Of a stretch of DNA of 64,000 bases, positions 855 through 63,895 are shown piece after piece. Origin of the DNA: a virus (Duplodnaviria > Caudoviricetes); IMG/VR virus record IMGVR_UViG_3300044949_002421, positions 800 to 64,799 of that record; one strand, 5' to 3'. The position numbers were made by a program, and so were the translations under genes. The notes below the pieces were generated by a model that had not been told where the DNA came from, made no database searches, and saw only the letters and a list, made by a program, of their open reading frames with translations. The first letter of the stretch is position 1, and the number at the start of each line of letters is the position of its first letter.

Positions 855-859
855 GGTGT

Positions 860-1763: not shown

Positions 1764-1969
1764 AGTTTGAATGCGAAACAGCCGAGCTTGGCAGATATGC
1801 GTCCGAAAAGGTCCTGAAGGACGGGCTTTCCCAGATGACCGAGGCCAACATGTCTCTTTTTGCGGAAAACCAGATTTTACGCTCCCGACTCGACCGGATG
1901 GCCGAATACCTTCGCCACGTTTCCATGCTCCACGAGGAACACGAAACAGGCGGGGTAATTGGTGCATGA
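1760..1969 (+). CDS. Hypothetical coiled-coil protein
   Basis: ATGA-coupled on both sides. Confidence 0.6.
   Translation: MKFECETAELGRYASEKVLKDGLSQMTEANMSLFAENQILRSRLDRMAEYLRHVSMLHEEHETGGVIGA
1944..1960 (+). promoter_or_regulatory. Early motif (copy 3)
   Basis: AAACA ggcgg GGTAATT ggtgc ATG(1966). Confidence 0.8.
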
Positions 1970-51159: not shown

Positions 51160-51529
51160 GCAGCTCGTCCAAGCTGTCAGCCGACCCCCTTAGTTGCCAC
51201 TCCAGCCCGTGTCCGGGCGCATTCTTTAGCTTCTTAAACTCAAAGCGGGGCCGCACAGAGAATCCCCAAGCCCTGTAAAGACTCGTGGCCGGCTGGCATC
51301 GGCACCAGAGGTATCCGTGGGCACAATAGCCTCCCCCGCCCAAGGAGCCGTTGCGGTAGAAGCGGAGCAAGGCCACCCACTCTTGGGCCTCATCCTCCCC
51401 TCCCCGCATGCTCACCCAGCACCCCATAAAATCCGAGGCATCCAGCCCAAGGATCTGCTTGTAGGTGTGGGGATGGTTCTTCTTCATCTTCCGGACGTCG
51501 ATTGAGGTTTCAAAAAGGAACATAGGCAT
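51047..51529 (-). CDS. Hypothetical early protein (start revised from 51598)
   Basis: ATG placed by the minus-strand motif copy. Confidence 0.6.
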   Translation of the reverse strand: MPMFLFETSIDVRKMKKNHPHTYKQILGLDASDFMGCWVSMRGGEDEAQEWVALLRFYRNGSLGGGGYCAHGYLWCRCQPATSLYRAWGFSVRPRFEFKKLKNAPGHGLEWQLRGSADSLDELLTGIGGKVSLAKMAVSREFSVLKDTARRRQMLEPGLN

Positions 51530-51534
51530 ACGGC

Positions 51535-51551
51535 AAATACCCGCCGTGTTT
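51535..51551 (-). promoter_or_regulatory. Early motif (copy 4, minus strand)
   Basis: Reverse complement AAACA cggcg GGTATTT gccgt ATG(51529). Confidence 0.75.
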
Positions 51552-51634
51552 TTAAGCGCAAGCCTTTGTGGTGATTTATTAAAATAATCCTTGCCCACCC
51601 CACCGCCTCACGTAGCCGGATGGAGGTGAGCAAA

Positions 51635-51651
51635 AAACAACGCGGGTAATT
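51635..51651 (+). promoter_or_regulatory. Early motif (copy 5)
   Basis: AAACA acgcg GGTAATT gggtt ATG(51657). Confidence 0.8.
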
Positions 51652-51656
51652 GGGTT

Positions 51657-52031
51657 ATGAAGCCCAAATACGAAATACTAGATATCGCCTGCCGCTACAT
51701 CAAACAACGCACCGGCAAGGACAGCCCAACCGACGAATCCTGCCTGATCCTTTCCTTGATGGAGAGGGTGCTAATTGCCGCTGAAGAGGTGGAGAAAAAG
51801 ACTCCCCTGCACTCCACCGCTCTTGAGGTGGCCTACCTTCTCTTCTTTTTATCCATCTCGGTCTCCACCAAGAAGGGCCTGAGCCGCTGGGGGAACATGA
51901 TGTCGGGAGTCACGATGGCCGAAACTCCCCCGATCAAGGGCGAGCCAAAGTTCTTTTCCGAGATGCGCCAATACGGGAGCGGACTCAGGGACGGCTACTA
52001 TGACTTGGTCAAAAGGGCTTCGGCTGGGTGA
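51657..52031 (+). CDS. Hypothetical early protein
   Basis: Motif-led start. Confidence 0.65.
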   Translation: MKPKYEILDIACRYIKQRTGKDSPTDESCLILSLMERVLIAAEEVEKKTPLHSTALEVAYLLFFLSISVSTKKGLSRWGNMMSGVTMAETPPIKGEPKFFSEMRQYGSGLRDGYYDLVKRASAG

Positions 52032-52330
52032 AGCGATGCTTTCTCAAGCGCAAAACCCCGCTCAAGCGGTCTGGGAGGCTTCGTCCCTTTACCCAGAAGC
52101 GCAAAGGCCAGTTGGATACCTACAGAAAGTTAAGACTTTCCTATCTAAAAAAGTTCCCTTTCTGCCGTCTTTGCGGAAAGAAGGCGACCCAAGTTCACCA
52201 CAAACGGGGGCGTATCGGGTGGCGTCTTTGCGCCGAGGAATTCTTCATGGCGATCTGCCAAGGCTGTCACGCCGACATCCACGCCAATGGAAGATGGGCC
52301 AGACAAAAAGGCTTCATCCTTCCCGCCTAA
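52028..52330 (+). CDS. HNH endonuclease
   Basis: CxxC..ATQVHH..AICxxCHADIH. Confidence 0.8.
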   Translation: MKRCFLKRKTPLKRSGRLRPFTQKRKGQLDTYRKLRLSYLKKFPFCRLCGKKATQVHHKRGRIGWRLCAEEFFMAICQGCHADIHANGRWARQKGFILPA

Positions 52331-52331
52331 G

Positions 52332-52661
52332 ATGAGACGCAGGGGCTTTTGCGGAAGTTCGATGCAGGGAGACTCCCACAGGGTTGCCTCTGCCCTCACG
52401 GCCAAGATCCAGCTTTCCCACTACGGGATGCGCCCAACCCGTGGGGTCATGAAGTCCATGGAAAGGCGGGCCAAGCGCCATGCCAAGGCCGATCACCTAT
52501 GGTGCAAGCAGGACACCCCAGAACTTAGTTTCGCCTTGGTCGACAAAGACAGAAACATCATGAAGTTTTCGATGATGACCTACGTCGAGTCGTTTAAGCG
52601 CAACAGGGTCATGAAGGGATTTGGATTTGCTTGGGTCAGATGCGACAGGAGGAACAAATGA
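52332..52661 (+). CDS. Hypothetical protein
   Basis: Coupled ORF. Confidence 0.5.
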   Translation: MRRRGFCGSSMQGDSHRVASALTAKIQLSHYGMRPTRGVMKSMERRAKRHAKADHLWCKQDTPELSFALVDKDRNIMKFSMMTYVESFKRNRVMKGFGFAWVRCDRRNK

Positions 52662-53005
52662 GCTACGAAATCGACGACGCGCCGGACCCGATCCGTGCGC
52701 TTAACTGGATGCGGGACAACGCCGAAAAGCTGGCCAACGCAAAGGCAGAACGGGCCTACATCGAGCAGTTCATCAAAAGCAAAAAGGCCATGCTCATGCA
52801 ACAAGTGTCGGAAAACTCCCCCACCCTAGCCGCACAGGAACGGGAAGCCTTGGCCCACCCAGAATACCTTGAGCTCCTTAAGGCCCACAAAGAGGCCGTG
52901 TTTATTGAGGAGAAGGTCAAAGCCTTGATGACAGCCGCACAAAATCAGATCGAAATCTGGCGAACCCTAGAAAGCACCAAGAGGGCCGAGCTCAAGGCGT
53001 TTTGA
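52658..53005 (+). CDS. Coiled-coil phage protein (UvsY-like)
   Basis: AQEREALAHPEY..IEIWRT pattern. Confidence 0.6.
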   Translation: MSYEIDDAPDPIRALNWMRDNAEKLANAKAERAYIEQFIKSKKAMLMQQVSENSPTLAAQEREALAHPEYLELLKAHKEAVFIEEKVKALMTAAQNQIEIWRTLESTKRAELKAF

Positions 53006-53544
53006 TGGAAAAGGTCGACCTAGCCGTTACCGCCGGCGAACAGGGCCGTGAGGACACCCAATGGTTCACCCAAGGGCTGGCCGCAGCCCTATGCTCTCCC
53101 CTGCCCATGCCCAACCGGCTTTGGCTGGATGTCGGGGCCGGCCTTGGGAGGTCAAGGGAACGTATTGAGCCACATGGGTTTCGTGTCATCACTCAAGACC
53201 CTGCTCCGGATCTTCCGGTCGACACCGATCAGCCGCTTGAAAAAATCTATGGCGAGTTTGGGGTCGTCTCAGCGTTCGATGTCATCGAGCACGTTAAGGA
53301 CGTTCCGGCTTTCTCCAAGGAGCTCTCAAGGCTCAGTTGCGGGTATGTGGCCATCTCCGCCCCATTCGATGCAGACAGCACCTACCACTTCCAAGTCTTC
53401 ACACCGCAATCCCTGCTTCAGCAAACATCCTCAATCGGGACACTTGTGCTGGCTTACGAGCTGGGCGAAGGCTGGGTCAGGCGGATGGACCACCGCATCA
53501 AGGAAGGCTTTGGTGCCCTGCTTATATACAGCGTGGGTAATTAG
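53002..53544 (+). CDS. Class I SAM-dependent methyltransferase
   Basis: WLDVGAGLG motif I; FGVVSAFDVIEHV. Confidence 0.85.
   Translation: MMEKVDLAVTAGEQGREDTQWFTQGLAAALCSPLPMPNRLWLDVGAGLGRSRERIEPHGFRVITQDPAPDLPVDTDQPLEKIYGEFGVVSAFDVIEHVKDVPAFSKELSRLSCGYVAISAPFDADSTYHFQVFTPQSLLQQTSSIGTLVLAYELGEGWVRRMDHRIKEGFGALLIYSVGN
53526..53542 (+). promoter_or_regulatory. Early motif (copy 6)
   Basis: ATACA gcgtg GGTAATT aggtc ATG(53548). Confidence 0.7.
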
Positions 53545-53547
53545 GTC

Positions 53548-53652
53548 ATGAGAGCCGTCTTTTATGCGTTCTGGTTCAACCTTGGATTCATGGTCGGGCT
53601 GTTGCTGACCTTGGTGCCAATCCTCCTTATCCGGGGGATCTTCAAAATATGA
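53548..53652 (+). CDS. 34-aa membrane peptide
   Basis: MRAVFYAFWFNLGFMVGLLLTLVPILLIRGIFKI; motif-led. Confidence 0.6.
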   Translation: MRAVFYAFWFNLGFMVGLLLTLVPILLIRGIFKI

Positions 53653-53822
53653 TCGTCTCCCCCTCCAGACTCAAGAGGGTCGCCTTGGAGATTGCCGCAC
53701 GACGGCACCACAAGTTCACGCGCATATCCCGTGAGTTTATCGAGAAGGCTGACCGCCATCTTGTGCATTGGATCGAGTCCCACATCAGCTCGCTCCCTTC
53801 CAAGGGAAAGACAATCAAATGA
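53649..53822 (+). CDS. 57-aa candidate histone-fold protein
   Basis: MIVSPSRLKRVALEIAARRHHKFTRISREFIEKADRHLVHWIESHISSLPSKGKTIK; ATGA-coupled on both sides. Confidence 0.55.
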   Translation: MIVSPSRLKRVALEIAARRHHKFTRISREFIEKADRHLVHWIESHISSLPSKGKTIK

Positions 53823-53914
53823 CTGAACTAGACAAACAAGTGGCGTTTGCCCACCGGTGCTACATCGCCGGCATTGTCGTGGGCGCCCTGCTCGGTTCTC
53901 TTGCCCTGCTTTGA
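53819..53914 (+). CDS. 31-aa membrane peptide
   Basis: MTELDKQVAFAHRCYIAGIVVGALLGSLALL; coupled. Confidence 0.5.
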   Translation: MTELDKQVAFAHRCYIAGIVVGALLGSLALL

Positions 53915-54201
53915 GACAGGGTTCCAAGGTTGTCTGCGTCGATGACCGGTTCCCTCCGGAGATATTTATCTACTACACCCAGCTGCCCATCAAGGATCGC
54001 ACCTACACCATCAGGGACATGGGGGTGGGAATTTCTCACAAGGGCGAGGTCGGGGAGATCGTCGTTTACCTAAACGAGCTGACCAACCCAGCATCGAACA
54101 AGCCCCCTCACCCCGAGCGTGGCTTCGCACAATGGAGGTTTCGAGAGATCGAGCCCCCCGCCGAGGTCGAGGAGGAGCAAGTCTTAGAACAAGTCGGGTA
54201 A
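53911..54201 (+). CDS. SH3-like hypothetical protein
   Basis: GSKVVCVDD..YTIR..GFAQWRFR; TTGA-coupled start. Confidence 0.65.
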   Translation: MRQGSKVVCVDDRFPPEIFIYYTQLPIKDRTYTIRDMGVGISHKGEVGEIVVYLNELTNPASNKPPHPERGFAQWRFREIEPPAEVEEEQVLEQVG

Positions 54202-54203
54202 TT
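54187..54203 (+). promoter_or_regulatory. Early motif (copy 7)
   Basis: GAACA agtcg GGTAATT ggggc ATG(54209). Confidence 0.75.
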
Positions 54204-54208
54204 GGGGC

Positions 54209-54526
54209 ATGGAATGGGAAACAGTTGGAAGGCATAAGCTAAAAAGCTTCAAAAACAGCCCTTGGGTCATGGTCAAAAGGCGGGTCAAGATCCGGAAAGC
54301 CAAAAACCTCTGGGATTGCTACTGGTATAACACCCGAGCCCGCATCTTCACCAAATACATGGCGGAGCCCAGCTACAAAAGGGCTACAGGAAAAAAGGGC
54401 ATGGAGCTGGCCTCTTCCCTGCTCCTCTGTCTAGACCCAGCCGACGAATGGGCTCACCCCCGCCAGTCTGTCCGCTTTTTCCGTGGGATAGGCCAGATGG
54501 AGCTTTTCAAAAAACAAAGGGAGTAA
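54209..54526 (+). CDS. Hypothetical early protein
   Basis: Motif-led. Confidence 0.6.
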   Translation: MEWETVGRHKLKSFKNSPWVMVKRRVKIRKAKNLWDCYWYNTRARIFTKYMAEPSYKRATGKKGMELASSLLLCLDPADEWAHPRQSVRFFRGIGQMELFKKQRE

Positions 54527-54528
54527 TT
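54512..54528 (+). promoter_or_regulatory. Early motif (copy 8)
   Basis: AAACA aaggg AGTAATT gagtc ATG(54534). Confidence 0.75.
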
Positions 54529-54533
54529 GAGTC

Positions 54534-55202
54534 ATGCCAAACCACATCACAAACAAACTGACAATAATGGACGGGAAGCTCGGAAGCATCAAAGAGAGGC
54601 TGAAATACTATGTCTCCAAGGATGATGACGGCAAAGAGAGCATCGACTTCAACAGGGTCATTCGGATGCCCCCTTCCCTTCAAATCACCGCCGGCGGCTC
54701 GGTTGACGAGGCCATGGCTGCAATCAAGGAGGACACAAAGTTCTTTGCCGAGAGGTTTGAATGGTGGAGCGGCAAGGGCTCATGGCTTGAGACAGAGGGC
54801 ATCAAAACCCCCAAGGACTTGATGGAATACAAGCGGAGGACGCTTTCCAAAGAGGCTCTGGAGGAAGGCAGGAAGGCCATCGAGAACCTCAAGAAATACG
54901 GCCACAAAGACTGGTATGGCTGGTGTTGCGACAAGTGGGGGACGAAATGGAACTCCTACGACACAACTTGGGATGACAGCGAGGTGACCTTCCTCACCGC
55001 TTGGGCTCCCCCCGATCCGGTCATCCAGAAGATGGCGGACGAGACCGGACTCACCATCCAGAACGAATGGTGGGACGAGGGAGACCCCGACAACATCGAA
55101 ATCTCCATCTTCAGTCCGGAGATTGACGGGATCAAACCGGAATACGCCCCGATCCGCCGAAAGAGGAATTCAAACAAGCGATGGGTGGTCGCACTTCCAT
55201 AA
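54534..55202 (+). CDS. DUF1281/YubB ferredoxin-like domain protein
   Basis: MPNHITNKL..IDFNRVI..DWYGW..WGTKWN..FLTAWAPP. Confidence 0.8.
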   Translation: MPNHITNKLTIMDGKLGSIKERLKYYVSKDDDGKESIDFNRVIRMPPSLQITAGGSVDEAMAAIKEDTKFFAERFEWWSGKGSWLETEGIKTPKDLMEYKRRTLSKEALEEGRKAIENLKKYGHKDWYGWCCDKWGTKWNSYDTTWDDSEVTFLTAWAPPDPVIQKMADETGLTIQNEWWDEGDPDNIEISIFSPEIDGIKPEYAPIRRKRNSNKRWVVALP

Positions 55203-55218
55203 AACAAGAAAGGTAATT
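55202..55218 (+). promoter_or_regulatory. Early motif (copy 9)
   Basis: AAACA agaaa GGTAATT gagtt ATG(55224). Confidence 0.8.
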
Positions 55219-55223
55219 GAGTT

Positions 55224-55625
55224 ATGACAGCACTAGAACTTATCAGATCGAAACAGAGGATGGAAAAAGCGGCCAAGGATCACGCCGAGGCCGTCAAGCA
55301 ACGGCAGGAGGAGGAGGATGCTGAAAAGTTTGCCCCACTCAAAAAGATATATGAAGAGGTAAGGCATCTCCCCGCAAAGCCAAGATACAATCACTCTAAC
55401 TCTTGCACCGAAACAATTAAGGGTATGTGGGAGAGCAGGCTCACTCCCCGCCACATTGAGTTCTGGAATGACATTGGCGGTGGAGGAGGGTGGAACCTTA
55501 CGGCTGAAGGCGGAACAATCTACCTAGTCGATCACTATCGGGACATTGGCAAGACCGAGGATATCGAGGAGGCCAAGGGATGGCTGGTCGAGAAGCTCGC
55601 CACAATGCTGGAGGATGAGAAATGA
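55224..55625 (+). CDS. Hypothetical early protein
   Basis: Motif-led. Confidence 0.65.
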   Translation: MTALELIRSKQRMEKAAKDHAEAVKQRQEEEDAEKFAPLKKIYEEVRHLPAKPRYNHSNSCTETIKGMWESRLTPRHIEFWNDIGGGGGWNLTAEGGTIYLVDHYRDIGKTEDIEEAKGWLVEKLATMLEDEK

Positions 55626-55662
55626 GCATCTGCAAAAAGAAACAACAAACGGAAGCGATGAA

Positions 55663-55809
55663 ATGAAACAAGCATTAACAAAAATAGTTAAACTGATTGA
55701 GGGCTGGGCAGACGATCAAAAACAAAGGCACGAAGATGTCCTGCTCAAGATTCTAAATACGGCATTAAAAGCCTTAAACCCGAAGCCGAAAAACAAGCGG
55801 GGTAATTAG
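55663..55809 (+). CDS. Hypothetical protein
   Basis: MKQALTKIVK..; stop lies at the next motif; start uncertain. Confidence 0.5.
   Translation: MKQALTKIVKLIEGWADDQKQRHEDVLLKILNTALKALNPKPKNKRGN
55791..55807 (+). promoter_or_regulatory. Early motif (copy 10)
   Basis: AAACA agcgg GGTAATT aggtat ATG(55814). Confidence 0.8.
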
Positions 55810-55813
55810 GTAT

Positions 55814-55915
55814 ATGAAAACAATCAATCTGGACGGATTCAAGGAGCATAAGCCATCCCGCAAGAAGGGGGCGGGAAATAAACAAACAACAAAGAAAGGA
55901 AACACACACAAATGA
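55814..55915 (+). pseudogene. Truncated duplicate of the 5' end of gene 56316
   Basis: 55814-55868 matches 56316-56370 at 51/55 nt; 33-aa ORF MKTINLDGFKEHKPSRKK... Confidence 0.75.
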
Positions 55916-56127
55916 AAACGACGCAACCAGCCGAAGCGATGACGGCCAAAGATCATCTTCGCATTAAAGAATTGTTGGAAACTATTTCGACGCTTCGTTC
56001 TGCTCTCGACGAGTGTCTTGACTTTGTTCAGCAGGAACACGACTACGACAATCCGAGCGGAACAACTGCTCGCCTCATGTCGGAAATTGATGAGGCGATC
56101 TGGCAAGCTGATGAGGTGACAAAATGA
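55912..56127 (+). CDS. Hypothetical protein
   Basis: SD-like AAAGGA with an AC-rich leader. Confidence 0.6.
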   Translation: MKTTQPAEAMTAKDHLRIKELLETISTLRSALDECLDFVQQEHDYDNPSGTTARLMSEIDEAIWQADEVTK

Positions 56128-56312
56128 AATACTTACACGCCTTTGATCTTGCATCTTGCGTGGAAAACGAACACGAAGACTTTTACAACACGCCCAAAGG
56201 GGAACTTATCAATGCGATGAGGGCAAGGCTGTCCGGCCTAACGGACGAAGAGGTCTTTGATGCGTTTGGCCACATTGAAACTAATTGCATTGAAAACAAG
56301 GAGACTAATTAG
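56124..56312 (+). CDS. Hypothetical protein
   Basis: ATGA-coupled. Confidence 0.6.
   Translation: MKYLHAFDLASCVENEHEDFYNTPKGELINAMRARLSGLTDEEVFDAFGHIETNCIENKETN
56294..56310 (+). promoter_or_regulatory. Early motif (copy 11, degenerate)
   Basis: AAACA aggag ACTAATT agatc ATG(56316). Confidence 0.65.
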
Positions 56313-56315
56313 ATC

Positions 56316-56906
56316 ATGAAAACAATCAATCTGGACGGATTCACCGAACACAAGCCATCCCGCAAGAAGGAACCCAAGCCCCTTCTGAAGGTCGATGGCA
56401 AGCCCGTGACAACCTTTGTGAAGGCCAAGCAAGCCTTTGACCACGCCGAGTCCGACCTTCGCAAGGCCAAGGAAGACCTGCTGGATGCGGCATCCCTCGA
56501 ATTCTGGCGCATGAACCACGCCCGAACCACGGCTGGCGAGCTTCCCGCATCCACCGCCGAGATGCAGGGTGAGGACTGCACGGCAAAGATCACGATGGCG
56601 AGAATGTATCCCGCCGTCACAGGCGAGGAGGTTTTGTCGGTATTGCCCAAGCCAATCTTCGAGACTGCCTTTCAGCAGAGCTTCGATTTCAAAATTGATG
56701 GCTCCAAGCTGAATCCCGAAACCGCTGGCGAGTTTGTCACCGAGCTTCGGATGCTTGTCGAAAAGCACCGCAGTTCACAGGCGATCACAATCAAGCGTGG
56801 ATTTCAGCCCACCGAGCAGTTCCACCTTGAGCGACACAAGATTCTGAAGCCAGAGCAGAACCTACAACTTCAGTCGGTTTGCCCTGCGAGAATCTATGTC
56901 AGTTGA
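56316..56906 (+). CDS. Hypothetical early protein
   Basis: Motif-led, 196 aa. Confidence 0.7.
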   Translation: MKTINLDGFTEHKPSRKKEPKPLLKVDGKPVTTFVKAKQAFDHAESDLRKAKEDLLDAASLEFWRMNHARTTAGELPASTAEMQGEDCTAKITMARMYPAVTGEEVLSVLPKPIFETAFQQSFDFKIDGSKLNPETAGEFVTELRMLVEKHRSSQAITIKRGFQPTEQFHLERHKILKPEQNLQLQSVCPARIYVS

Positions 56907-57492
56907 ATCAGCCACCACCCTGCTCACGAAGTCGCCGAGGCTACCGCTCCGACCCTACTCCTGCATCACGGCACTTCAGTTGCAGTCTTTTTGCGACTGG
57001 AGTTTTGAGCCGAAGATAAACGGATGGAGGTGCGTTGTGGATGCCGAGCGTGGAAGGGTGATTTCACGGCACGGCACAACCTTTGCCGAGTCGGGACACA
57101 TACTGGACATAGTCTCCAACACGCCGACCCTTGCCGGTCTCGGTTTACTCGACTGCGAGTTCCTTGGAAGGAGAACCAAGGCTGGCAAGGGATCGGTTGT
57201 GGTGATGGATGTTATGGATTCCACCCTCCCCTATCTGGAAAGACGCACCATGCTCGACAGCCTTTGCGAAGTCCCGCTGGACGACATCCCCACAAACGCA
57301 ATCCTCCGATTCCCCGCCTACACACAGGAACAGGCCAGAATGATCCTTGAGGATATGCGGGAGGTGAATGACCGCCGTTGCGAGGTGATTTGGGAGGGTT
57401 TTGTGGCCAAGCACAACGCCTCGCCCTACCCACGCAAATACGACCAGAACGAATGTCGCTACTGGGCGAAAGCCCGACTCCTCACCGCATAA
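56896..57492 (+). CDS. Minimal ATP-dependent ligase / covalent nucleotidyltransferase domain
   Basis: EPKINGWR (motif I), LDCEF (III), VMDVM (IIIa), EGFVAK (IV), WAKAR (V); no OB fold. Confidence 0.8.
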   Translation: MSVESATTLLTKSPRLPLRPYSCITALQLQSFCDWSFEPKINGWRCVVDAERGRVISRHGTTFAESGHILDIVSNTPTLAGLGLLDCEFLGRRTKAGKGSVVVMDVMDSTLPYLERRTMLDSLCEVPLDDIPTNAILRFPAYTQEQARMILEDMREVNDRRCEVIWEGFVAKHNASPYPRKYDQNECRYWAKARLLTA

Positions 57493-57493
57493 C

Positions 57494-57510
57494 AAACACG
57501 CCGGGTAATT
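57494..57510 (+). promoter_or_regulatory. Early motif (copy 12)
   Basis: AAACA cgccg GGTAATT gagcc GTG(57516). Confidence 0.75.
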
Positions 57511-57515
57511 GAGCC

Positions 57516-58739
57516 GTGAAGAGGCTCACACTCGGAGGATTCAAAAGAAAGTTCGGCATCACAGGGCTGGACGAAATCGACTCCGACCCAAACACCCTCA
57601 CCGCCTACATCAAGACCCTTCGGGAATATGCGGACGGCGGGTGGATGGAGCAAACCGAGCCAGAAAACTTGGAAAACGGGATCAAACCCAAAAACACAGG
57701 GGGTAATTCTGGCATGAGATTAAGCAAACAACTCCGTGATAGGTGGTATGCACGATGCCTTAACATCAGCGTCAACGAGCTGGACAAGGAAAAGAAACGC
57801 TGGGAAACCCGCAGGGAGAACTGGGGCAAGCTATCCTTTGTCCGACACAACCTGAAGGCCAACAAGGTCAATCCGACCATCGAGGAAAAATACTTCGAGA
57901 CCTTTAAGGGCGACCTTTGCTCGGTTGAGTTGGAATGCGTTTTCGAGAGTGCCGAGATGATCCCCAGCCTCAAATCCGTTGGACGCTACTTGGTCGACAA
58001 GGAGGATGACGGCTCCTTGGAGTATTATCCCCAGCGGGAGGATCGAAACAGGGACGAGGACAACGAGGACGAGTCGGAATGCTCGGATGACTGGGGTGCC
58101 GCCGAGTTCAAAGTCACCTTCCGGCACGAGCGTCCCCTCCGACTCCGATCCGTTGTGGACAAGCTGAATGCTTGCGGTGCGGAGGTGAACACCACTTGCG
58201 GAATGCACCTTCACCTCGACCAGCGGGGCATCTCCTCTGCGATGGCCAGCAAGCGAGCCAAGCGTCTTATCAAATGCCTTCCCGCATTGACGCAGATTGT
58301 GGCTCCCAGCCGTCTTCGAAATAGCTACTGCCATATCAACCGCCCGATCCGTAGGGGCGTGAACTATCGCCACCAGACCAACCGCTACTTGGCGATTAAC
58401 CACGCTTCCGCCTACCTCGAACACACGACAACCGAGAACAGGCTACACGGCGGGACGCTGGACTTCTGGAAAATTATGGGATGGGTCGATCTGAACAAAT
58501 GGATTATGCGGTCGGCCGAGGTCGATGCAGTCGCCGATGCCAACAGCCTACGCCATCCAGAGGGCGAGATTAGCGTCAGCTTCGATGACATGATTCGGTT
58601 CAAAACGCTCCCCGAAACGATCCGCAGTTATATGTGGAGACGCTATCGCCAGTTTCACCCCGCCGAGGCCATTACCCTTCGGGAGAAGTTGCTTCGGGAA
58701 GACCAACACAGGCTTACGGATGGCTACGCCGTCAGCTGA
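57516..58739 (+). CDS. Putative amidoligase (COOH-NH2 ligase, Amidoligase_2); second in-frame start at 57714
   Basis: VELEC, DGSL, EFK, TCGMHLHL, RYLAIN, TTENRLHGGTL. Confidence 0.85.
   Translation: MKRLTLGGFKRKFGITGLDEIDSDPNTLTAYIKTLREYADGGWMEQTEPENLENGIKPKNTGGNSGMRLSKQLRDRWYARCLNISVNELDKEKKRWETRRENWGKLSFVRHNLKANKVNPTIEEKYFETFKGDLCSVELECVFESAEMIPSLKSVGRYLVDKEDDGSLEYYPQREDRNRDEDNEDESECSDDWGAAEFKVTFRHERPLRLRSVVDKLNACGAEVNTTCGMHLHLDQRGISSAMASKRAKRLIKCLPALTQIVAPSRLRNSYCHINRPIRRGVNYRHQTNRYLAINHASAYLEHTTTENRLHGGTLDFWKIMGWVDLNKWIMRSAEVDAVADANSLRHPEGEISVSFDDMIRFKTLPETIRSYMWRRYRQFHPAEAITLREKLLREDQHRLTDGYAVS
57692..57708 (+). promoter_or_regulatory. Early motif (copy 13, intragenic)
   Basis: AAACA caggg GGTAATT ctggc ATG(57714), in frame with 57516. 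Confidence 0.75.
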
Positions 58740-58740
58740 A

Positions 58741-58757
58741 AAACAGAAAGGATAATT
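58741..58757 (+). promoter_or_regulatory. Early motif (copy 14)
   Basis: AAACA gaaag GATAATT aagtt ATG(58763). Confidence 0.75.
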
Positions 58758-58762
58758 AAGTT

Positions 58763-59833
58763 ATGTGCAGACTAATTGGATTCAGCGTTGAGAAACCCCT
58801 TACGAAGGAACAGCTGGAAAAAATGATTAACACCAGCCGTGACCTTCTGAAGGATCAGAAAGACGGATTCGGCTATGCCCTATCGGGCGGGGAGATTGAT
58901 GGCATCACCCATCTTCGCCTTGTGACTGGCTCCCTGCTTGGCTACGGATACGATCCGCTTGGCGAGTGGGAGTCAGTTGCCCGACCCACTTTCGACTCCA
59001 AAGGATTGGTCAAACCCTGCACGGCTGGATTGTTTCACGGACGGACTTCGACCAACGACATTGGGATCAAAAATACCCATCCGTTTGTGAACGATGAGCT
59101 GGCCTTGGCTCACAACGGAATTGTGGATTACACCGGACCGAACAGGAAAAAGATCGGGACTTGCGACAGCGAAGACCTTTTCAATACCTTCACCAAGGGC
59201 AAGGGCTGGAAGGAGCTTTCCAAGTATTACGAGGGCTACGCCGCCCTTCTGATTCTACGCAAGGACGGCCATCTTACCCTATATCGGGACGAGACCCCTT
59301 CCCTCTATGTGATGCGTTTTAATGGCGGGTTTATTGTCTCAACCAGCAGTTATGACGGCACGGAATTGGTCAAAGCGGTCTTCGGGCAAGTTTCGCAAGC
59401 CCCGATCCAGATCAAAGCCAACCATGTAGTCACAACGAAACATGGTGCAATCCTCGACAAGAAGCGGGTCAAACCGATTGCCAGAAAGAGCTACGCCAAA
59501 GACCAGTTGTCCCTTGGATACAGCACAACCTTCGACTACCCCAAAAAGAAAACCAAAGGCGGATGGGCGGACGGCGACAGCGAAGACAGCGGTATCGGGG
59601 ATTACAGCGGGAGCGGGACAGATGCCGACTACCAGAACGGATATGACGAGGGCTACCACGACTCGGTAAACGCCTCTGGCTACTACGAAGACCGAACACA
59701 ATCCAAGAAGTTCCTCGATGGCTACCAAAAGGGCTACCTAGAGGGCGAAAAGGAGATGGCAAAACTCGATGAGGTGGAAGTTGCCGAGGGAGCCGAGGAC
59801 GAGGTGGACGAGCTGGAGGTCGCCAGCCCGTAA
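58763..59833 (+). CDS. Class II (Ntn) glutamine amidotransferase
   Basis: Cys2 (MCRLIG), DGFG, HGRTST, NTHPF, AHNG, DSE; acidic GYxxG-repeat tail. Confidence 0.9.
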   Translation: MCRLIGFSVEKPLTKEQLEKMINTSRDLLKDQKDGFGYALSGGEIDGITHLRLVTGSLLGYGYDPLGEWESVARPTFDSKGLVKPCTAGLFHGRTSTNDIGIKNTHPFVNDELALAHNGIVDYTGPNRKKIGTCDSEDLFNTFTKGKGWKELSKYYEGYAALLILRKDGHLTLYRDETPSLYVMRFNGGFIVSTSSYDGTELVKAVFGQVSQAPIQIKANHVVTTKHGAILDKKRVKPIARKSYAKDQLSLGYSTTFDYPKKKTKGGWADGDSEDSGIGDYSGSGTDADYQNGYDEGYHDSVNASGYYEDRTQSKKFLDGYQKGYLEGEKEMAKLDEVEVAEGAEDEVDELEVASP

Positions 59834-59834
59834 A

Positions 59835-59851
59835 AAACAACGGGGGTAATT
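59835..59851 (+). promoter_or_regulatory. Early motif (copy 15)
   Basis: AAACA acggg GGTAATT taagt ATG(59857). Confidence 0.8.
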
Positions 59852-59856
59852 TAAGT

Positions 59857-60105
59857 ATGACAAATTCAAATAACCTCCAAACCATTCGGAAGAAGCTTGT
59901 CGATGCAGTTGTGGAAGTCGGGAGCTGGAACAATGCGATGATCCAACTCTCCCACAAGCCGAGGAAGGACAGGGACACCGAGCTTGTTGAGATGCTTGAC
60001 CACGCCTACGCCATTCGGGACTACGCCGAGCAGTTGCAAACCCTCCTTCGGGGATACCAGATTCAGAAGGACAAGGTCATCCAAGCGATGGAGATGGCAA
60101 TATGA
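59857..60105 (+). CDS. Hypothetical early protein
   Basis: Motif-led. Confidence 0.65.
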   Translation: MTNSNNLQTIRKKLVDAVVEVGSWNNAMIQLSHKPRKDRDTELVEMLDHAYAIRDYAEQLQTLLRGYQIQKDKVIQAMEMAI

Positions 60106-60296
60106 TCCCCTTCGACACGCTAAAGGGGTGGGTCAGACAGGACTTGACCGAGCTTTCCAAGCTTGGGAGCCGGTTTGCGGACGATGCCGTCAGGGCGGTG
60201 GACTCTGGAAAGTATGACGATGTTATCGGGGATTTTGGAGGCGGGAGTGTCACCGACTTGTCCGACCTAATCATCTCACTTGAGGAAACACGCTAG
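60102..60296 (+). CDS. Hypothetical protein
   Basis: ATGA-coupled. Confidence 0.6.
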   Translation: MIPFDTLKGWVRQDLTELSKLGSRFADDAVRAVDSGKYDDVIGDFGGGSVTDLSDLIISLEETR

Positions 60297-60302
60297 GTAA
60301 TT
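60286..60302 (+). promoter_or_regulatory. Early motif (copy 16)
   Basis: AAACA cgcta GGTAATT cttat ATG(60308). Confidence 0.8.
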
Positions 60303-60307
60303 CTTAT

Positions 60308-60622
60308 ATGAACGACCTAACAGACGACACGAAACTGAATTGTGCGGGCGAATTTATGACGGCCTGCGAAAACTCCCACCAACTCAGCCAAGCAGTTTCA
60401 ATTCTGTCTTCCCTGCTTGATGACGGACTTGTGGGCTTGGAGTTTGTGGAAAACATCGCCGATGCCTTGGCTTACTCGATTGAACAGGCAAAAGAACACT
60501 ACAAGGACATAGAAGATCAAGAGGATCGGGAGAATCTTCAGAGCGAGACACTAAACGGAATCCTTGAGTTTTCCCACGCCTACCTAGCCAAGACTTACGA
60601 GAAGAAGGTTGGGAGGGCTTAA
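60308..60622 (+). CDS. Acidic hypothetical early protein
   Basis: Motif-led. Confidence 0.65.
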   Translation: MNDLTDDTKLNCAGEFMTACENSHQLSQAVSILSSLLDDGLVGLEFVENIADALAYSIEQAKEHYKDIEDQEDRENLQSETLNGILEFSHAYLAKTYEKKVGRA

Positions 60623-60639
60623 AAACATTATGAGTAATT
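60623..60639 (+). promoter_or_regulatory. Early motif (copy 17)
   Basis: AAACA ttatg AGTAATT attat ATG(60645). Confidence 0.7.
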
Positions 60640-60644
60640 ATTAT

Positions 60645-60764
60645 ATGCAAATCAAAGAAACCAAAGAGCAACTATTAGACGGCAGAATCAAAGTCGTCCG
60701 AACCATCAGAAAACCAAACCTATCAGTTGTCGATATTGTGACCTACGAGGGGGCAAGAAAATGA
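60645..60764 (+). CDS. 39-aa hypothetical protein
   Basis: MQIKETKEQLLDGRIKVVRT..; motif-led and ATGA-coupled to the next gene. Confidence 0.6.
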   Translation: MQIKETKEQLLDGRIKVVRTIRKPNLSVVDIVTYEGARK

Positions 60765-61162
60765 GCAAGTCAAAGACCCCAAAAACCGATGTTAGCGACA
60801 GGCTTCTGACCTTTGTATCGGGATGTCTTGGACTTGCGGGGAGCTTTCCAGAAGGCCGAGTGAGCAACGCCTTGGCTGATTCACTCCTAAAGCCATCCGT
60901 TGCCTCTTATTTTCGCCACGGAGAGGCGGAAGGCTCGCCCTCGGCCAAGGAGTTTACGGAGAAATTTCGGGAAGTCTTGAAGGAGCTACGCACAACCCGC
61001 AGGGCTTTGCAGATGATTCAGAAAACAGCCGTGAAAGGATTGATATCGCTGGGTGACTCCTGCGACTTGGATTCGGTAAAGGACTTGCTTGAGCAAGCGG
61101 ACGAGCTTGTGAGGACTTTCTTCCAGTCGGTCAGAGTCCTCGAAAACAAGGTGGGTAATTGA
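60761..61162 (+). CDS. Four-helix-bundle protein (23S rRNA IVP / Avd-related family)
   Basis: DRLLTF..LADSLLK..GEAEGSPSAKEF..KELRTT..L..ADELV. Confidence 0.75.
   Translation: MSKSKTPKTDVSDRLLTFVSGCLGLAGSFPEGRVSNALADSLLKPSVASYFRHGEAEGSPSAKEFTEKFREVLKELRTTRRALQMIQKTAVKGLISLGDSCDLDSVKDLLEQADELVRTFFQSVRVLENKVGN
61144..61160 (+). promoter_or_regulatory. Early motif (copy 18)
   Basis: AAACA aggtg GGTAATT gaatt ATG(61166). Confidence 0.8.
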
Positions 61163-61165
61163 ATT

Positions 61166-61426
61166 ATGAAGCAAAAAACCAACCGACAAATCTTCAAACA
61201 GGCGATTCAAAACTTGGACGACATCACGCTGGCCATCCTTCGGGAGAGGATTCTCTCGATCACCGAGGCCACGCTTCGGGACAAGGAGGAGGTCAAGAAG
61301 CAGATGACTGGCTCCTTCTTCAATCCCGACAGCTGGATTGGGTTTATTGAGAAGATTCACGAACAATTCAAATTCGAGAACAGCGGAAAGTTCTTTTTCA
61401 ACACGCCCACCACAAAGGCCGGATGA
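61166..61426 (+). CDS. Hypothetical early protein
   Basis: Motif-led. Confidence 0.65.
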   Translation: MKQKTNRQIFKQAIQNLDDITLAILRERILSITEATLRDKEEVKKQMTGSFFNPDSWIGFIEKIHEQFKFENSGKFFFNTPTTKAG

Positions 61427-61776
61427 GCAAAAAAGAAATAGATTACTACGGCGATAAGGACAACTACATCCACCTCAAATTCGGGGATTGCAGAAAAGCC
61501 TACAACTTCACAACGGAGTTCAAAAAGGCACATCCAGAATTTGCGGAAAAATATAAGCGATATTGGGATTGGGAGAATGGGGGCTTTGAAGACTTCAAAA
61601 ATCCCTTCCAAGTGGTGGCTTATGCCTTCAAGAAAAACATTCCAGTTCGCTTTTATTACAACTACACGGACGAACCTGCAAAGGGGTATGAGGACATCAT
61701 CGACTACTTGGTGCGAGAAAACACCTTCGTTCCAGATGCGGGAGCAATCCAAGCCAAAAACTTTAAGGGTAATTAA
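61423..61776 (+). CDS. Hypothetical protein
   Basis: ATGA-coupled; aromatic-rich. Confidence 0.6.
   Translation: MSKKEIDYYGDKDNYIHLKFGDCRKAYNFTTEFKKAHPEFAEKYKRYWDWENGGFEDFKNPFQVVAYAFKKNIPVRFYYNYTDEPAKGYEDIIDYLVRENTFVPDAGAIQAKNFKGN
61758..61774 (+). promoter_or_regulatory. Early motif (copy 19)
   Basis: AAACT ttaag GGTAATT aaggt ATG(61780). Confidence 0.75.
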
Positions 61777-61779
61777 GGT

Positions 61780-62082
61780 ATGAACCCCAAAATCAAAGAA
61801 GCGATCAAAAAAGAATTAGACCCTATTGATGTCGAGCAACGCTATCGGGACTTGCTCGATGAAGTGTATCCAGAGGTCAAAATAGGATACGCAACCTATT
61901 CCCCTTCCCAAATCGTGGAAGAGCTTTCTCCCACGGACTTTAGGGTCGGGGTAGCCGACTACACAGGAACCGAGGAAAACCTTACCGAGGTGGACGGCGA
62001 GTATTACGACACAAGCGAGGTGGATGAAATCACGGAACGAATCGAGGACGAGGAAGTCAAAACACAAGGCGAAGACCAATGA
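61780..62082 (+). CDS. Acidic early protein
   Basis: YRDLLDEVYPEVKIG..YSPS..PTDFR pattern; very E/D-rich. Confidence 0.7.
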   Translation: MNPKIKEAIKKELDPIDVEQRYRDLLDEVYPEVKIGYATYSPSQIVEELSPTDFRVGVADYTGTEENLTEVDGEYYDTSEVDEITERIEDEEVKTQGEDQ

Positions 62083-62237
62083 CTTGGGAGGAGCGAGTCA
62101 CACAACTGGAGGAGCAAGGCCTCACACGGAGCGATGCACAGGGAGCCGTTGATGTCGAAATTCTGGAGGGATGGAGGCCAAGCGATTTTCAGCCGTGGAT
62201 GTTATGCCAGAAAACAGCCGAGGTAATTAGGGTATGA
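62079..62237 (+). CDS. 52-aa hypothetical protein
   Basis: MTWEERVTQLEEQGLTRSDAQG; ATGA-coupled on both sides. Confidence 0.6.
   Translation: MTWEERVTQLEEQGLTRSDAQGAVDVEILEGWRPSDFQPWMLCQKTAEVIRV
62212..62228 (+). promoter_or_regulatory. Early motif (copy 20)
   Basis: AAACA gccga GGTAATT agggt ATG(62234). Confidence 0.8.
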
Positions 62238-62383
62238 ACAATACAACCACAACCATCACAGACGGCGAAAAAGAGCAGAACAAGCGGATCAAAGCCAACT
62301 TGGCAGAGGTGGATTGGACTCACACCTCACTTGAGGAGTTGGAGGATGTTTTCGAGGACAGAGACCCCTTGGAATTCCTTTGA
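62234..62383 (+). CDS. 49-aa acidic protein
   Basis: Motif-led MNNTTTTITDG...DPLEFL. Confidence 0.6.
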   Translation: MNNTTTTITDGEKEQNKRIKANLAEVDWTHTSLEELEDVFEDRDPLEFL

Positions 62384-62407
62384 TCGGGGAAAACAAGAGA
62401 ACCCAAG

Positions 62408-62424
62408 AAACATCCAAGGTAATT
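62408..62424 (+). promoter_or_regulatory. Early motif (copy 21)
   Basis: AAACA tccaa GGTAATT aggat ATG(62430). Confidence 0.8.
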
Positions 62425-62429
62425 AGGAT

Positions 62430-62846
62430 ATGAACGAAACCAACCAGCAGATCGCAAATGTCGCCAAGGAAGCGATTGAGAAAATCCTCACCCTTCTGGA
62501 AACGACACAAACCCCAACCGAAACCCAAGACCAAGAGACGATTGAACGGCATCGTGAAAGCGTTATCGATAAGGCGGTCGATTCGATCCTTGAGGATTCG
62601 AGCCAGATTAAGGACGACATCGTGGACAAGGTCGCCGACTCGATCGACAACTCCGACATAAGCGACTCCGTTTATGACCGCCTCGATGTTGACGACATTG
62701 TCAGCGGGGTGGCCGAGCGGATCGATGACGATGAGGTCGCCCAGAAGGTGGCCGAGAACCTCGACACCGATTCGACAGAATTCTACCGCAATCTTGCAAA
62801 GGGCTTGCTGGAGGTGATTAGGGAGGAGGCGAAAGTATCCGCCTAA
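62430..62846 (+). CDS. Highly acidic protein with ~13-aa repeats
   Basis: [IL]DxxD[IV]xxxVAxx units. Confidence 0.7.
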   Translation: MNETNQQIANVAKEAIEKILTLLETTQTPTETQDQETIERHRESVIDKAVDSILEDSSQIKDDIVDKVADSIDNSDISDSVYDRLDVDDIVSGVAERIDDDEVAQKVAENLDTDSTEFYRNLAKGLLEVIREEAKVSA

Positions 62847-62887
62847 ACTTGGGGGATCGGGGTGGGAGGTGACTAACCACGCCCGAA

Positions 62888-62904
62888 AAACGCCAAGGGT
62901 AATT
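62888..62904 (+). promoter_or_regulatory. Early motif (copy 22)
   Basis: AAACG ccaag GGTAATT aaagc ATG(62910). Confidence 0.75.
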
Positions 62905-62909
62905 AAAGC

Positions 62910-63068
62910 ATGAACAACCTAACCGAAATCTACTGGATGCTTGAAAACTGCACGGATGAAATCAATCGGGTCGATGCCTTTGACCGACTCTTAAACGAGA
63001 TCGGAACCTCGACACGAGTCCACCGCACGATTGGGCGGGTGGAGGAGCTGGCCATAGGGGTCGAATGA
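62910..63068 (+). CDS. 52-aa hypothetical protein
   Basis: Motif-led MNNLTEIYWMLE... Confidence 0.6.
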   Translation: MNNLTEIYWMLENCTDEINRVDAFDRLLNEIGTSTRVHRTIGRVEELAIGVE

Positions 63069-63232
63069 TGAGCGTATTATCACAGGACGCTTGGAAATAT
63101 GCCGAAGGCGACCCGAGACGAGACCTTTTTCCCAGTAAATGGGACAACGAACTCCCCCCGAAGGAATGGCAGTCGATCCTGCTCCCCCAAGGCGGGGAAA
63201 AGGGGAATCCCAAAAACATCACAGGTAATTAA
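63065..63232 (+). CDS. 55-aa hypothetical protein
   Basis: ATGA-coupled; stop lies at the next motif. Confidence 0.5.
   Translation: MMSVLSQDAWKYAEGDPRRDLFPSKWDNELPPKEWQSILLPQGGEKGNPKNITGN
63214..63230 (+). promoter_or_regulatory. Early motif (copy 23)
   Basis: AAACA tcaca GGTAATT aagac ATG(63236). Confidence 0.8.
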
Positions 63233-63235
63233 GAC

Positions 63236-63454
63236 ATGAGCAAAAAACACTTCGAAAAACTGGCCGTAATGGTCGCCAGCATCAAAGACCAGATTGAAAA
63301 GGAAACGATGACCGAAAGAATGATCGAATTCTGTAGGGAAATGAACCCCAACTTCTCCCCCTACCGATTTAAAGAGGCAGTCAACGACCTCTCTTTAGGA
63401 GTCCGCCCTTGCGGATTCTCCAAGGCAACCTTTGAAGGGATTGCCCGCAAATGA
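63236..63454 (+). CDS. Conserved small phage early protein
   Basis: MSKKHFEKLA..NPNFxxxRF pattern. Confidence 0.7.
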   Translation: MSKKHFEKLAVMVASIKDQIEKETMTERMIEFCREMNPNFSPYRFKEAVNDLSLGVRPCGFSKATFEGIARK

Positions 63455-63639
63455 TCCCCCAAGTCGATCCCCCTTGGAAATGGGGCGTTTATACTGGGAA
63501 GGGAGTCGCCGAACCTCCAAAGCCTCGCACACGCGAAGGGGGGGAGGTAAACCCCGACTGGACTTGTGAGGAGCGAGGGAACGGAGTTGTCTTGAGTAGT
63601 TTTTCAAAAGGGAACCCTACCGAAAAACAGACAGGGTAA
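63451..63639 (+). CDS. Hypothetical protein
   Basis: ATGA-coupled; stop inside the next motif. Confidence 0.45.
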   Translation: MIPQVDPPWKWGVYTGKGVAEPPKPRTREGGEVNPDWTCEERGNGVVLSSFSKGNPTEKQTG

Positions 63640-63641
63640 TT
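63625..63641 (+). promoter_or_regulatory. Early motif (copy 24)
   Basis: AAACA gacag GGTAATT aaggt ATG(63647). Confidence 0.8.
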
Positions 63642-63646
63642 AAGGT

Positions 63647-63895
63647 ATGCAAACATTCACCAAGTCAGCATCAAAGAAGTCAGTCAAAGAGTTTGTCAAC
63701 GAGGCGAAGCGGGTGGGCTACTCTGTAAAGGGTGGCATCAGTAAGGCCAAGCTTGAGGTCTTTACCGATGAATGCGAACAGCATCCCGCAGGGGAGCTGG
63801 TCTTTAAGGCAATCGCCCCCTTCCCTAATTCGAGCTTCTGGCTGATGACATTCAACGCCGAGTATTGGAAAGAGGGAGCCACAGCGACAGCGTAG
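63647..63895 (+). CDS. Hypothetical early protein
   Basis: Motif-led. Confidence 0.65.
   Translation: MQTFTKSASKKSVKEFVNEAKRVGYSVKGGISKAKLEVFTDECEQHPAGELVFKAIAPFPNSSFWLMTFNAEYWKEGATATA

Follow-up and report, generated by a model that had tools for sequence, protein, structure and literature searches.

A two-box motif abutting the start codons of non-structural genes in an uncultured freshwater phage, a candidate promoter for leaderless mRNAs

We analysed a window of 64,000 nucleotides, corresponding to bases 800-64799 of the 64,799-bp virus record IMGVR_UViG_3300044949_002421 (Duplodnaviria; Caudoviricetes), in which an earlier note, made from the letters alone, had pointed to a two-box motif, AAACA-N5-GGTAATT, lying directly ahead of the start codons of many genes that it called early. 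The GC content is 52%, and the record ends overlap by about 137 bp at 96% identity, so that the genome is closed or terminally redundant. The window encodes a terminase, a portal protein, a major capsid protein (MCP) of the N4-gp56 family and a tailspike-like protein, while a block on the minus strand carries exonuclease and replisome-organizer-like genes; no tRNA genes were found in it. Close DNA relatives came from lake, lagoon and freshwater metagenomes, and no named phage record matched the window. A search of the MCP family returned 58 metagenome proteins, the most distant of them in a metagenome-assembled genome (MAG) of the Verrucomicrobiota, and the GTDB genomes yielded two MAG contigs with distant relatives; the host assignment is weak.

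A search for the exact pattern gave 15 matches, all on the plus strand, and none in any of 100 shuffled sequences (mean and maximum 0), so that the enrichment proposed by the earlier note was borne out. When up to two mismatches were allowed in the 12 fixed bases, on both strands, there were 29 matches, and 24 of these stood directly before a start codon, at the places that the note had listed. At none of the five others (5333 on the plus strand; 50683, 21929, 21722 and 6288 on the minus strand) does a start codon follow at this spacing; each has two mismatches, and we treat them as chance matches. The 799 genome bases outside the window contain no copy. All 24 copies are sense-oriented to their gene and lead open frames of 33-407 amino acids (aa); 15 have no mismatch, eight have one and a single copy (56294) has two. 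The spacer geometry was also as first described, with a first spacer of 5 nt in 24/24 copies and a second gap of 5 nt in 22/24 and of 6 nt in the two at 331 and 55791. An ATG, reported to follow every copy, follows 23 of them, but the gene at 57516 starts with GTG (1/24).

The copies are listed in Table 1. Twenty-three belong to a plus-strand array of small genes that begins at 51657, crosses the genome junction and ends at about 2391, and the minus-strand copy at 51551 diverges from the plus-strand copy at 51635 across 83 bp. The minus-strand operon comprises 18 genes and has the motif at its first gene only, with about 17 later genes lacking it. Of the plus-strand array genes that lack the motif, most have either a 4-nt overlap with the gene before them or a run resembling a Shine-Dalgarno (SD) sequence. 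No structural gene is preceded by a copy, in agreement with the earlier note, but the same statement about replication genes does not hold, as the copy at 51551 heads the minus-strand replication operon. The preceding open reading frame (ORF) stops no more than 24 nt from the ATG in 16 of the 23 plus-strand copies, with ends immediately ahead of box 1, within the TAA of box 2, right behind box 2 or in overlap with the ATG. The amidoligase-domain gene has two in-frame motif-led starts, because one copy inside its ORF precedes an in-frame ATG, and this layout is kept in both close relatives.

Table 1. Motif copies preceding start codons, with the genes that they lead (window coordinates).
Position	Strand	Copy and gene	Basis
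331..356	+	Copy with ATG, 6-nt second gap; DUF3846 gene 354-665	Motif scan and domain search
838..862	+	Copy with ATG; serine recombinase (resolvase) gene 860-1450	Motif scan and domain search
1944..1968	+	Copy with ATG; 141-aa gene 1966-2391; last copy ahead of the structural genes	
51527..51551	-	Sole minus-strand copy, GGTATTT variant, ATG at 51529; heads replication operon to about 42154	
51635..51659	+	Copy with ATG; first plus-strand gene 51657-52031	
53526..53550	+	ATACA variant with ATG; 34-aa hydrophobic ORF (start 53548)	
54187..54211	+	GAACA variant with ATG; gene 54209-54526; cassette joint at 54211	
54512..54536	+	AGTAATT variant with ATG; gene 54534-55202; preceding gene stops at the TAA of box 2	
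55202..55226	+	Copy with ATG; gene 55224-55625	
55791..55816	+	6-nt second gap, with ATG; 33-aa cut-off duplicate of the 56316 start; joints 55807/55813 to 56316	
56294..56318	+	ACTAATT, two mismatches, with ATG; gene 56316-56906	
57494..57518	+	Copy with GTG; long start of amidoligase-domain gene 57516-58739	
57692..57716	+	Copy within the amidoligase-domain ORF, with in-frame ATG at 57714; 341-aa short form	
58741..58765	+	GATAATT variant with ATG; GATase-like gene 58763-59833	
59835..59859	+	Copy with ATG; gene 59857-60105	
60286..60310	+	Copy with ATG; gene 60308-60622	
60623..60647	+	AGTAATT variant with ATG; 39-aa ORF	
61144..61168	+	Copy with ATG; gene 61166-61426	
61758..61782	+	AAACT variant with ATG; gene 61780-62082	
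62212..62236	+	Copy wholly within upstream ORF 62079-62237, with ATG; gene 62234-62383	
62408..62432	+	Copy with ATG; gene 62430-62846	
62888..62912	+	AAACG variant with ATG; gene 62910-63068	
63214..63238	+	Copy with ATG; gene 63236-63454	
63625..63649	+	Copy with ATG; gene 63647-63895	

A position matrix refined the signal to AAAACA (-23 to -18), GGG (-13 to -11) and TAATT (-10 to -6), spanning about -24 to +4, with A-rich positions at -24 and -23 extending the AAACA of box 1. In the 22 copies with a 5-nt second gap, G occupies -13 in 17, -12 in 19 and -11 in 20, A replaces it at -13 in five, positions -5 to -2 are weakly purine- or G-rich with mostly G at -3, and +4 is A in 16. TAATT is invariant save for one A-to-T change, and GGTAAT lies at -12 to -7 in 22/24 copies. 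The spacers had been said to vary freely; because of the preferences at spacer positions (G or A at -13, G at -3, a pyrimidine at -1) they are not wholly free. The base at -1 is a pyrimidine in 24/24 copies versus 19/52 other genes, and the base at +1 is a purine in 24/24. RNA polymerases usually prefer this combination, a pyrimidine at -1 and a purine at +1, where they initiate. The information content of the motif is about 24 bits, ATG excluded.

Searching IMG/VR with the full pattern retrieved two contigs with 6 and 7 exact copies, besides about 110 single matches at chance level. These two contigs share 68-96% DNA identity with the window; when up to one mismatch is allowed, the parts compared contain 16 and 14 copies, and a complete relative of 64,882 bp (G001) carries 23. 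Across 32 orthologous pairs with two relatives the boxes were 0.88-1.0 identical, and the first spacer (-17 to -14), the upstream flank and positions -4 to -1 only 0.31-0.66. The motif, hereafter type A, was absent from four complete relatives with 50-65% capsid identity. By counting hexamers at fixed offsets before ATGs we found other motifs, three relatives being positive. Type B, in G002 and G003 (also G006) at 65% MCP identity, reads GCAACAC-N3-[AC]GGACT-N7/8-ATG, with 9-10 occurrences of AGGACT-N7/8-ATG and 13-15 of the two-box core on one strand (about 1 expected). Type C, in G004 at 55% MCP identity, reads CGGAC-N7-GTTTAA-N4-ATG and has 8 copies versus 0.02 expected. When anchored at the ATG, all three types place box 1 at about -23 to -18 and box 2 within -13 to -5, and nearly all copies have a pyrimidine at -1, mostly T in types B and C. 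Types A and B have in common AACA at -21 to -18 and GG at -12/-11. There is also a likeness across types, box 1 of C (CGGAC[GT]) being similar to box 2 of B ([AC]GGACT) with a shift of about 10 bp. The fixed-offset k-mer count, which motifs of fewer than five copies would escape, detected no start-linked motif in G005 and G007-G010 (MCP identity 34-52%). Apparent k-mer matches in G005 and G007 were rejected, as they came from a coding tandem repeat. In both genomes a structural-region gene contains long coding tandem repeats of 12-nt units of the GGAACGAgaata type (about 14080-14870 in G005).

We compared the upstream 25 nt of the genes with a generic 9-nt anti-SD sequence. Pairing of the motif-led genes had a median of -4.7 kcal/mol, and its best window, which begins at -16/-17, is too far from the ATG; the median was -4.2 kcal/mol for late genes, and SD use is weak genome-wide. 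Strong and well-placed AGGAGG-type SDs precede the portal and MCP genes. The earlier statement that motif-led genes have no consistent SD while portal and MCP carry AGGAGG is thus upheld. The motif was rejected as an SD ribosome-binding site, the pairing being weak and misplaced and types B and C not sharing it. RNAalifold predicted 0 pairs and no hairpin over 22 copies, Rfam gave no family match anywhere in the window, and the motif has no dyad symmetry. A consensus scan for sigma70 sites between 50500 and 64000 returned 7 versus 8.1 expected, with none at motif copies save a weak 9/12 site at 56290 and none in the divergent 83 bp. A sigma70-type promoter was likewise rejected by sequence, since sites are not in excess and box 2 departs from TANNNT, with G/G at -12/-11 and only T at -7 fitting. 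The GGTAAT had been taken as a -10 element; its position agrees, as it ends 6 nt before the ATG, but its sequence does not, and because T-12 and A-11 are absent the analogy is one of position only. Terminator-like sites numbered 12 versus 19.6 expected from shuffles.

These observations suggest, with a probability that we put at about 0.5, that the motif is a compact phage-specific promoter abutting the ATG and giving rise to leaderless mRNAs. We favour a promoter because of the -1/+1 context, the 6-nt register, the single copy at the head of an operon and the absence of a usable ribosome site. Box 1, AAAACA (-23 to -18), and box 2, GGGTAATT (-13 to -6), about one helical turn apart, would both be read on double-stranded DNA by a factor other than the host housekeeping sigma. 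The pyrimidine at -1 would be followed by the first base of the RNA, which would be the A of the start codon or, in one case, its G. Each motif-led gene could then have a leaderless mRNA with no need for an SD, and the downstream genes of each unit would be translated through 4-nt-overlap coupling or their own SD. One copy would drive the whole minus-strand replication operon and 23 the plus-strand accessory array, in which read-through would also occur, there being no terminators between its units. The recurrence of the same 25 bases every few hundred bases would offer homology for the gain, loss and exchange of cassettes. The motif, its register and conservation, the presence of other boxes in its place in relatives and the breakpoints at its copies are observed; we infer the action on DNA, the +1 at the A of the ATG and a reader specified by the phage. 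The proposal of a leaderless non-sigma70 promoter in the earlier note accordingly gains from the information content, the -1/+1 bases, the register and the operon logic, but retains GGTAAT only as a positional analogue of a -10. Its non-sigma70 part is further supported by the other box sequences in the same register in relatives. Since a signal of about 24 bits is read as a linear sequence and its boxes are replaced in the same register among relatives, anti-SD pairing is excluded and a housekeeping sigma disfavoured, which points to a co-evolving protein specific to the lineage.

RNA data were available as contigs of one metatranscriptome run (X20), the ends of which say nothing on RNA starts. 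Three contigs matched the window (51681-51906, 56612-57223 and 57194-57567). The last crosses the motif at 57494, and the suggestion in the earlier note of a separate mRNA for nearly every gene stays tentative. Such read-through would be expected if there are no terminators, and fits equally well one long message with internal signals. The X20 contigs do not cover 44001-51337, a region covered by DNA runs, and we draw no conclusion from this. The contig at 51681-51906, within the first plus-strand gene, had a very high depth (763), and its end at 51906 connects back to 51681 through 6 extra letters; an artefact of assembly is one possible cause, a stable or circular fragment another.

A polycistronic message spanning the motif, as the contig across 57494 would allow, leaves room for a signal acting at the RNA level: a translation operator or enhancer bound by a phage RNA-binding protein (an activator or a RegA-like repressor), or an unusual ribosome-loading site. 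In T4, RegA has its operator at the starts of early genes and offers a precedent. The fixed distance to the start codon and the gene-by-gene presence of the motif, coupled genes excepted, agree with such a signal; lineage-specific boxes would fit a co-evolving RNA-binding protein, and the genome-wide weakness of SD use means that the host may initiate without one. However, the motif stands only at the first of 18 genes in the minus-strand operon, which is natural for a promoter, its 24 bits are far above the signals of ribosome sites, no RNA structure is conserved and the motif-led genes would still be without a ribosome-binding site. Moreover, one conserved rRNA could not pair with all three of the unrelated box sets, and we know of no role in bacterial translation start for an invariant pyrimidine at -1 before a purine, which also counts against an RNA-level signal. 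We therefore regard it as unlikely. Still less probable, and in our view very unlikely, is an RNA-processing site at which a sequence-specific endoribonuclease, either of the phage or the host RNase E at TAATT, would cut just upstream of the ATG and so divide long transcripts into monocistronic messages with short leaders. Read-through RNA, the fixed ATG distance and, in type A, an AU-rich island between G-rich flanks speak for cleavage. Yet the GGACT of type B is not AU-rich, there is no structure, and a two-box site with an unconstrained 4-nt core is unlike known RNase sites. In addition, the copy of the minus-strand operon has nothing upstream to cut unless a promoter lies in the 83 bp, where no sigma70-like site was found.

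Pfam and PHROGs searches of 45 proteins or fragments, which did not cover every ORF, recognised no RNA polymerase or sigma factor. A PDB sequence search, motif scans, the fold of the C-terminal 1090 aa of the giant protein described below and an Atlas search with its residues 560-1560 likewise revealed none, and the earlier note, too, had recognised no RNA polymerase in the window. In 20 non-structural proteins, Pfam found no sigma or polymerase domain and instead resolvase, amidoligase, GATase, methyltransferase, DUF3846 and DUF1281_C domains. Presence and absence across 8 relatives did not narrow the candidates, the whole non-structural module differing between clades. We paid particular attention to a giant protein of 4428 aa (10688-23974), encoded beside the portal gene in the virion gene cluster. 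Pfam assigned it a GHKL ATPase at about aa 2108-2245 and a ddrB-ParB domain at about aa 1583-1713, PHROGs gave GHKL/RIIA-like matches only, and the protein looks polyvalent. The close relative G001 has a different middle part. Only the C-terminal 1090 aa are conserved throughout the five relatives, and they contain an invariant EGDxDD(D) run. The catalytic-loop logic of P23-45 gp96, as given in 10.1101/2022.12.01.518664, served as the model for testing this run as a DxDxD metal loop, which found no support, as the AlphaFold model of these 1090 aa (29 sequences, mean pLDDT 67, pTM 0.55) is almost all helix and has no barrels. The PDB sequence search gave no match, and a T7-type Rx3Kx6-8YG match at aa 2384 was discarded as isolated, without motifs A and C. 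A virion RNA polymerase within the giant protein is thus not supported, the fold search being confined to the C-terminal 1090 aa. Residues 560-1560 have a likeness to large polyvalent-protein domains (ESM Atlas, best score 0.90, a lead only), and their alignment shows no catalytic-looking invariant residues. Four 351-aa fragments of the giant protein gave no sigma family at Pfam E <= 5; a weak Terminase_5 helix-turn-helix had an E of 0.021.

Several points weigh against a phage-specific leaderless promoter. The searches made, which left some ORFs uncovered, recognised no phage polymerase or sigma, and the C-terminal 1090 aa of the giant protein have no PDB fold match at E <= 0.001 (Foldseek gave helical-repeat noise only). 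A reader made by the phage would need delivery in the virion or a basal transcript, a bootstrap problem that would arise because all non-structural transcription units depend on the motif. Box 2 has neither the T-12 nor the A-11 found in -10 elements of the sigma70 type and, in type B, is GGACT and not AT-rich. Twenty-four promoters in about 14 kb would be unusually dense, the fixed distance to the ATG fits a translation signal equally, and the RNA contig 57194-57567 indicates some read-through.

With a reader supplied by the host, either an alternative sigma (for example of the extracytoplasmic function (ECF) type) or an unusual housekeeping sigma, the bootstrap problem would be gone, and no phage reader was recognised in the searches made. 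The AAC in box 1 and GGTA in box 2 of type A, and the GGAC/GTT of type C, do resemble the -35 and -10 words of ECF promoters, yet they lie about 10 bp closer together. Three box sets occur among relatives at 55-65% MCP identity, which speaks against a host-read promoter, and to our knowledge a box spacing of 5 nt fits no sigma family. The possibility that the motif is simply a host housekeeping signal, raised at the outset as a check, was addressed in 151 genomes sampled from the weakly assigned host phylum Verrucomicrobiota, where the motif with ATG was at chance level (1 match vs 2 for a reversed control), which makes for a weak test. The two MAGs holding distant relatives had 0 matches at up to one mismatch. 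A host-read leaderless promoter hence appears distinctly unlikely, the weak host assignment notwithstanding. A more specific version of the phage-specific promoter, possible though doubtful, is a hidden phage transcription system. Its reader, a new sigma-like factor or a polymerase concealed in unannotated protein, would be delivered in the virion or made by the phage, would recognise two boxes (at -22 and -10) with only about 10 bp between them, and would start RNA on the start codon. Within this clade of uncultured phages from fresh water, which have capsids of the N4 type, the system would have split into at least three distinct specificities (AAAACA/GGGTAATT, GCAACAC/GGACT and CGGAC/GTTTAA) with the register unchanged.

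The motif also coincides with the limits of gene turnover. Contigs of relatives from three DNA runs showed deletions or replacements with respect to the window that end at the motif. In one variant, the end of box 2 at 55807 is joined straight to the ATG at 56316, with loss of the duplicate start and two SD-led genes; other variant breaks are at 54211/54511 and 62211. Eight of 20 joint ends between 51530 and 64000 fell within -23 to +10 of a motif-led start versus 1.1 expected (P ~1e-4). At 55791-56370, the motif and the first 18 codons of gene 56316 are duplicated at 55814 with two SD-led genes in between, and relatives in two DNA runs are without the whole insert. Copies 838 and 51551 (minus strand) share 19 identical bases (833-851 and 51538-51556) in inverted orientation and flank the accessory array, one of them beside the serine recombinase gene. 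In view of the loss of this identity in G001 and the lack of symmetry in the motif, we do not read the pair as a recombinase site.

Joints at motif-led starts, a serine recombinase gene that is itself motif-led and two copies with 19 inverted identical bases are in keeping with a motif that served primarily as a recombination or cassette-boundary site, for this recombinase or for an integron-like system. Nevertheless, there is no dyad or hairpin, and the 19-base identity is lost in G001. Of the 24 copies, 23 point the same way, each fixed with respect to a start codon and its frame, a constraint for which a recombination site has no use. An integron attC or other site-specific recombination site was rejected for lack of a palindrome or fold, and the only recombinase present is a small one of the resolvase-type serine family. 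We attribute the joints to homologous exchange among the copies, as in the promoter-early stem-loops (PeSLs) described in PMC2839356. Of the cassette-boundary alternative in the earlier note, what stands is that gene gain and loss end at the motif; as a primary role, recombination is most improbable, and cassette exchange is best seen as a by-product of the repeats.

Other features of the genome deserve mention. The junction region (genome bases 1-250 together with window positions 63896-64000) is non-coding and contains T-runs, a perfect palindrome (GGTCACAA/TTGTGACC) and a CCCCCG/CGGGGG hairpin. Words of the CCCACCCC type from the junction occur 11 times in the window versus 3.1 expected, and a further one lies at 51594, between the divergent motif copies. 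The region, which is followed by a 120-aa gene without the motif, may be a packaging end, an origin or an operator. At 57516-59833, the amidoligase-domain gene adjoins a class-II glutamine amidotransferase-like gene, and the pair suggests a pathway for small-molecule or DNA/protein modification. Upstream (56896-57492), a 198-aa protein contains EPKINGWR, a word resembling KxDGxR, which we take to be nucleotidyl-transferase motif I of ATP-dependent ligases. Its gene is coupled to that of a 196-aa partner, and both are kept in motif types A, B and C. Two further proteins, both recognised by eye, are also kept in all three types: an HNH-like zinc-finger protein (52028-52330) with a GTG start, the gene of which overlaps the first plus-strand gene, and a 106-aa protein (43200-43520) with a putative C-terminal helix-turn-helix.

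If the phage-specific leaderless promoter is confirmed, nearly all non-structural genes of this clade would rely on one compact signal uniting the starts of transcription and translation, the specificity of which would have changed at least twice among relatives with its geometry unchanged. The clade would then be a natural system for the co-evolution of reader and site, for large-scale use of leaderless mRNAs by phages and for repeat-driven cassette turnover, and a hidden transcription system, if real, would provide natural orthogonal expression signals free of ribosome sites. The motif is also a precise start-codon marker for the annotation of small ORFans, including ORFs of 33-39 aa and an internal in-frame start.

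Among known phages, N4 (Schitoviridae) is alike in its MCP of the N4-gp56 family and in a giant protein of the virion gene cluster encoded beside the portal gene. The early promoters of the N4 virion RNA polymerase are DNA hairpins, whereas no conserved hairpin occurs here, and the giant protein has GHKL, ParB-like and polyvalent features with no polymerase signature. Poxvirus late promoters (TAAATG) are compact, placed gene by gene and overlap the ATG with their initiator, in a eukaryotic virus with its own multisubunit polymerase and slippage-made poly(A) heads. The per-gene compact promoter at the ATG is thus alike, but the sequence is unrelated.

The PeSL cassettes of the T4-type phages RB49 and phi1 set a precedent for early regions that are plastic and carry a promoter in many copies (Arbiol et al., 2010, PMC2839356). 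As described in that paper, a short regulatory repeat precedes many small non-essential genes and recombination between copies shuffles modules, much as proposed here; however, the PeSL combines a sigma70-like promoter with a terminator stem-loop, while our repeat has neither and abuts the ATG (PMC2839356). For leaderless genes of Deinococcus, a -10 motif about 6-7 bp upstream of the ORF has been reported (PMC12340547). According to that account, the Deinococcus-Thermus signal and ours are alike in ending 6-7 bp before the start codon, in the absence of an SD and in a start codon presumed to be +1. Theirs is nonetheless TANNNT and read by the host RpoD (PMC12340547), whereas the motif here has G/G at -12/-11, an obligatory box at -23 to -18 and a sequence varying between related phages.

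The promoters of phage RNA polymerases are comparable in being short, rich in information, phage-specific and repeated, with specificities that differ between related phages. As reported in PMC5312081, AR9 has 41 early and 94 late sites, with the late consensus AACA-N6-T-A/G(+1), and phiKZ has a late TATG; P23-45 has two motif classes, for a virion and a non-virion RNA polymerase (10.1101/2022.12.01.518664). Because such repeated, high-information motifs in AR9, phiKZ and P23-45 proved to be promoters in these accounts, the promoter reading is strengthened. The AACA word is common to AR9 and the present motif, but its distance to the start is 7 nt in AR9 and 17 nt here, and AR9 leaders measure 26-491 nt (PMC5312081). 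A further difference is that the searches made recognised no RNA polymerase in this 64.8-kb genome. Our literature search turned up no description of the motif, which is not proof that none exists. What is particular here, compared with these systems, is a non-sigma70 two-box signal with boxes about 10 bp apart, serving the whole non-structural genome and occurring as three box sets in one register within one clade.

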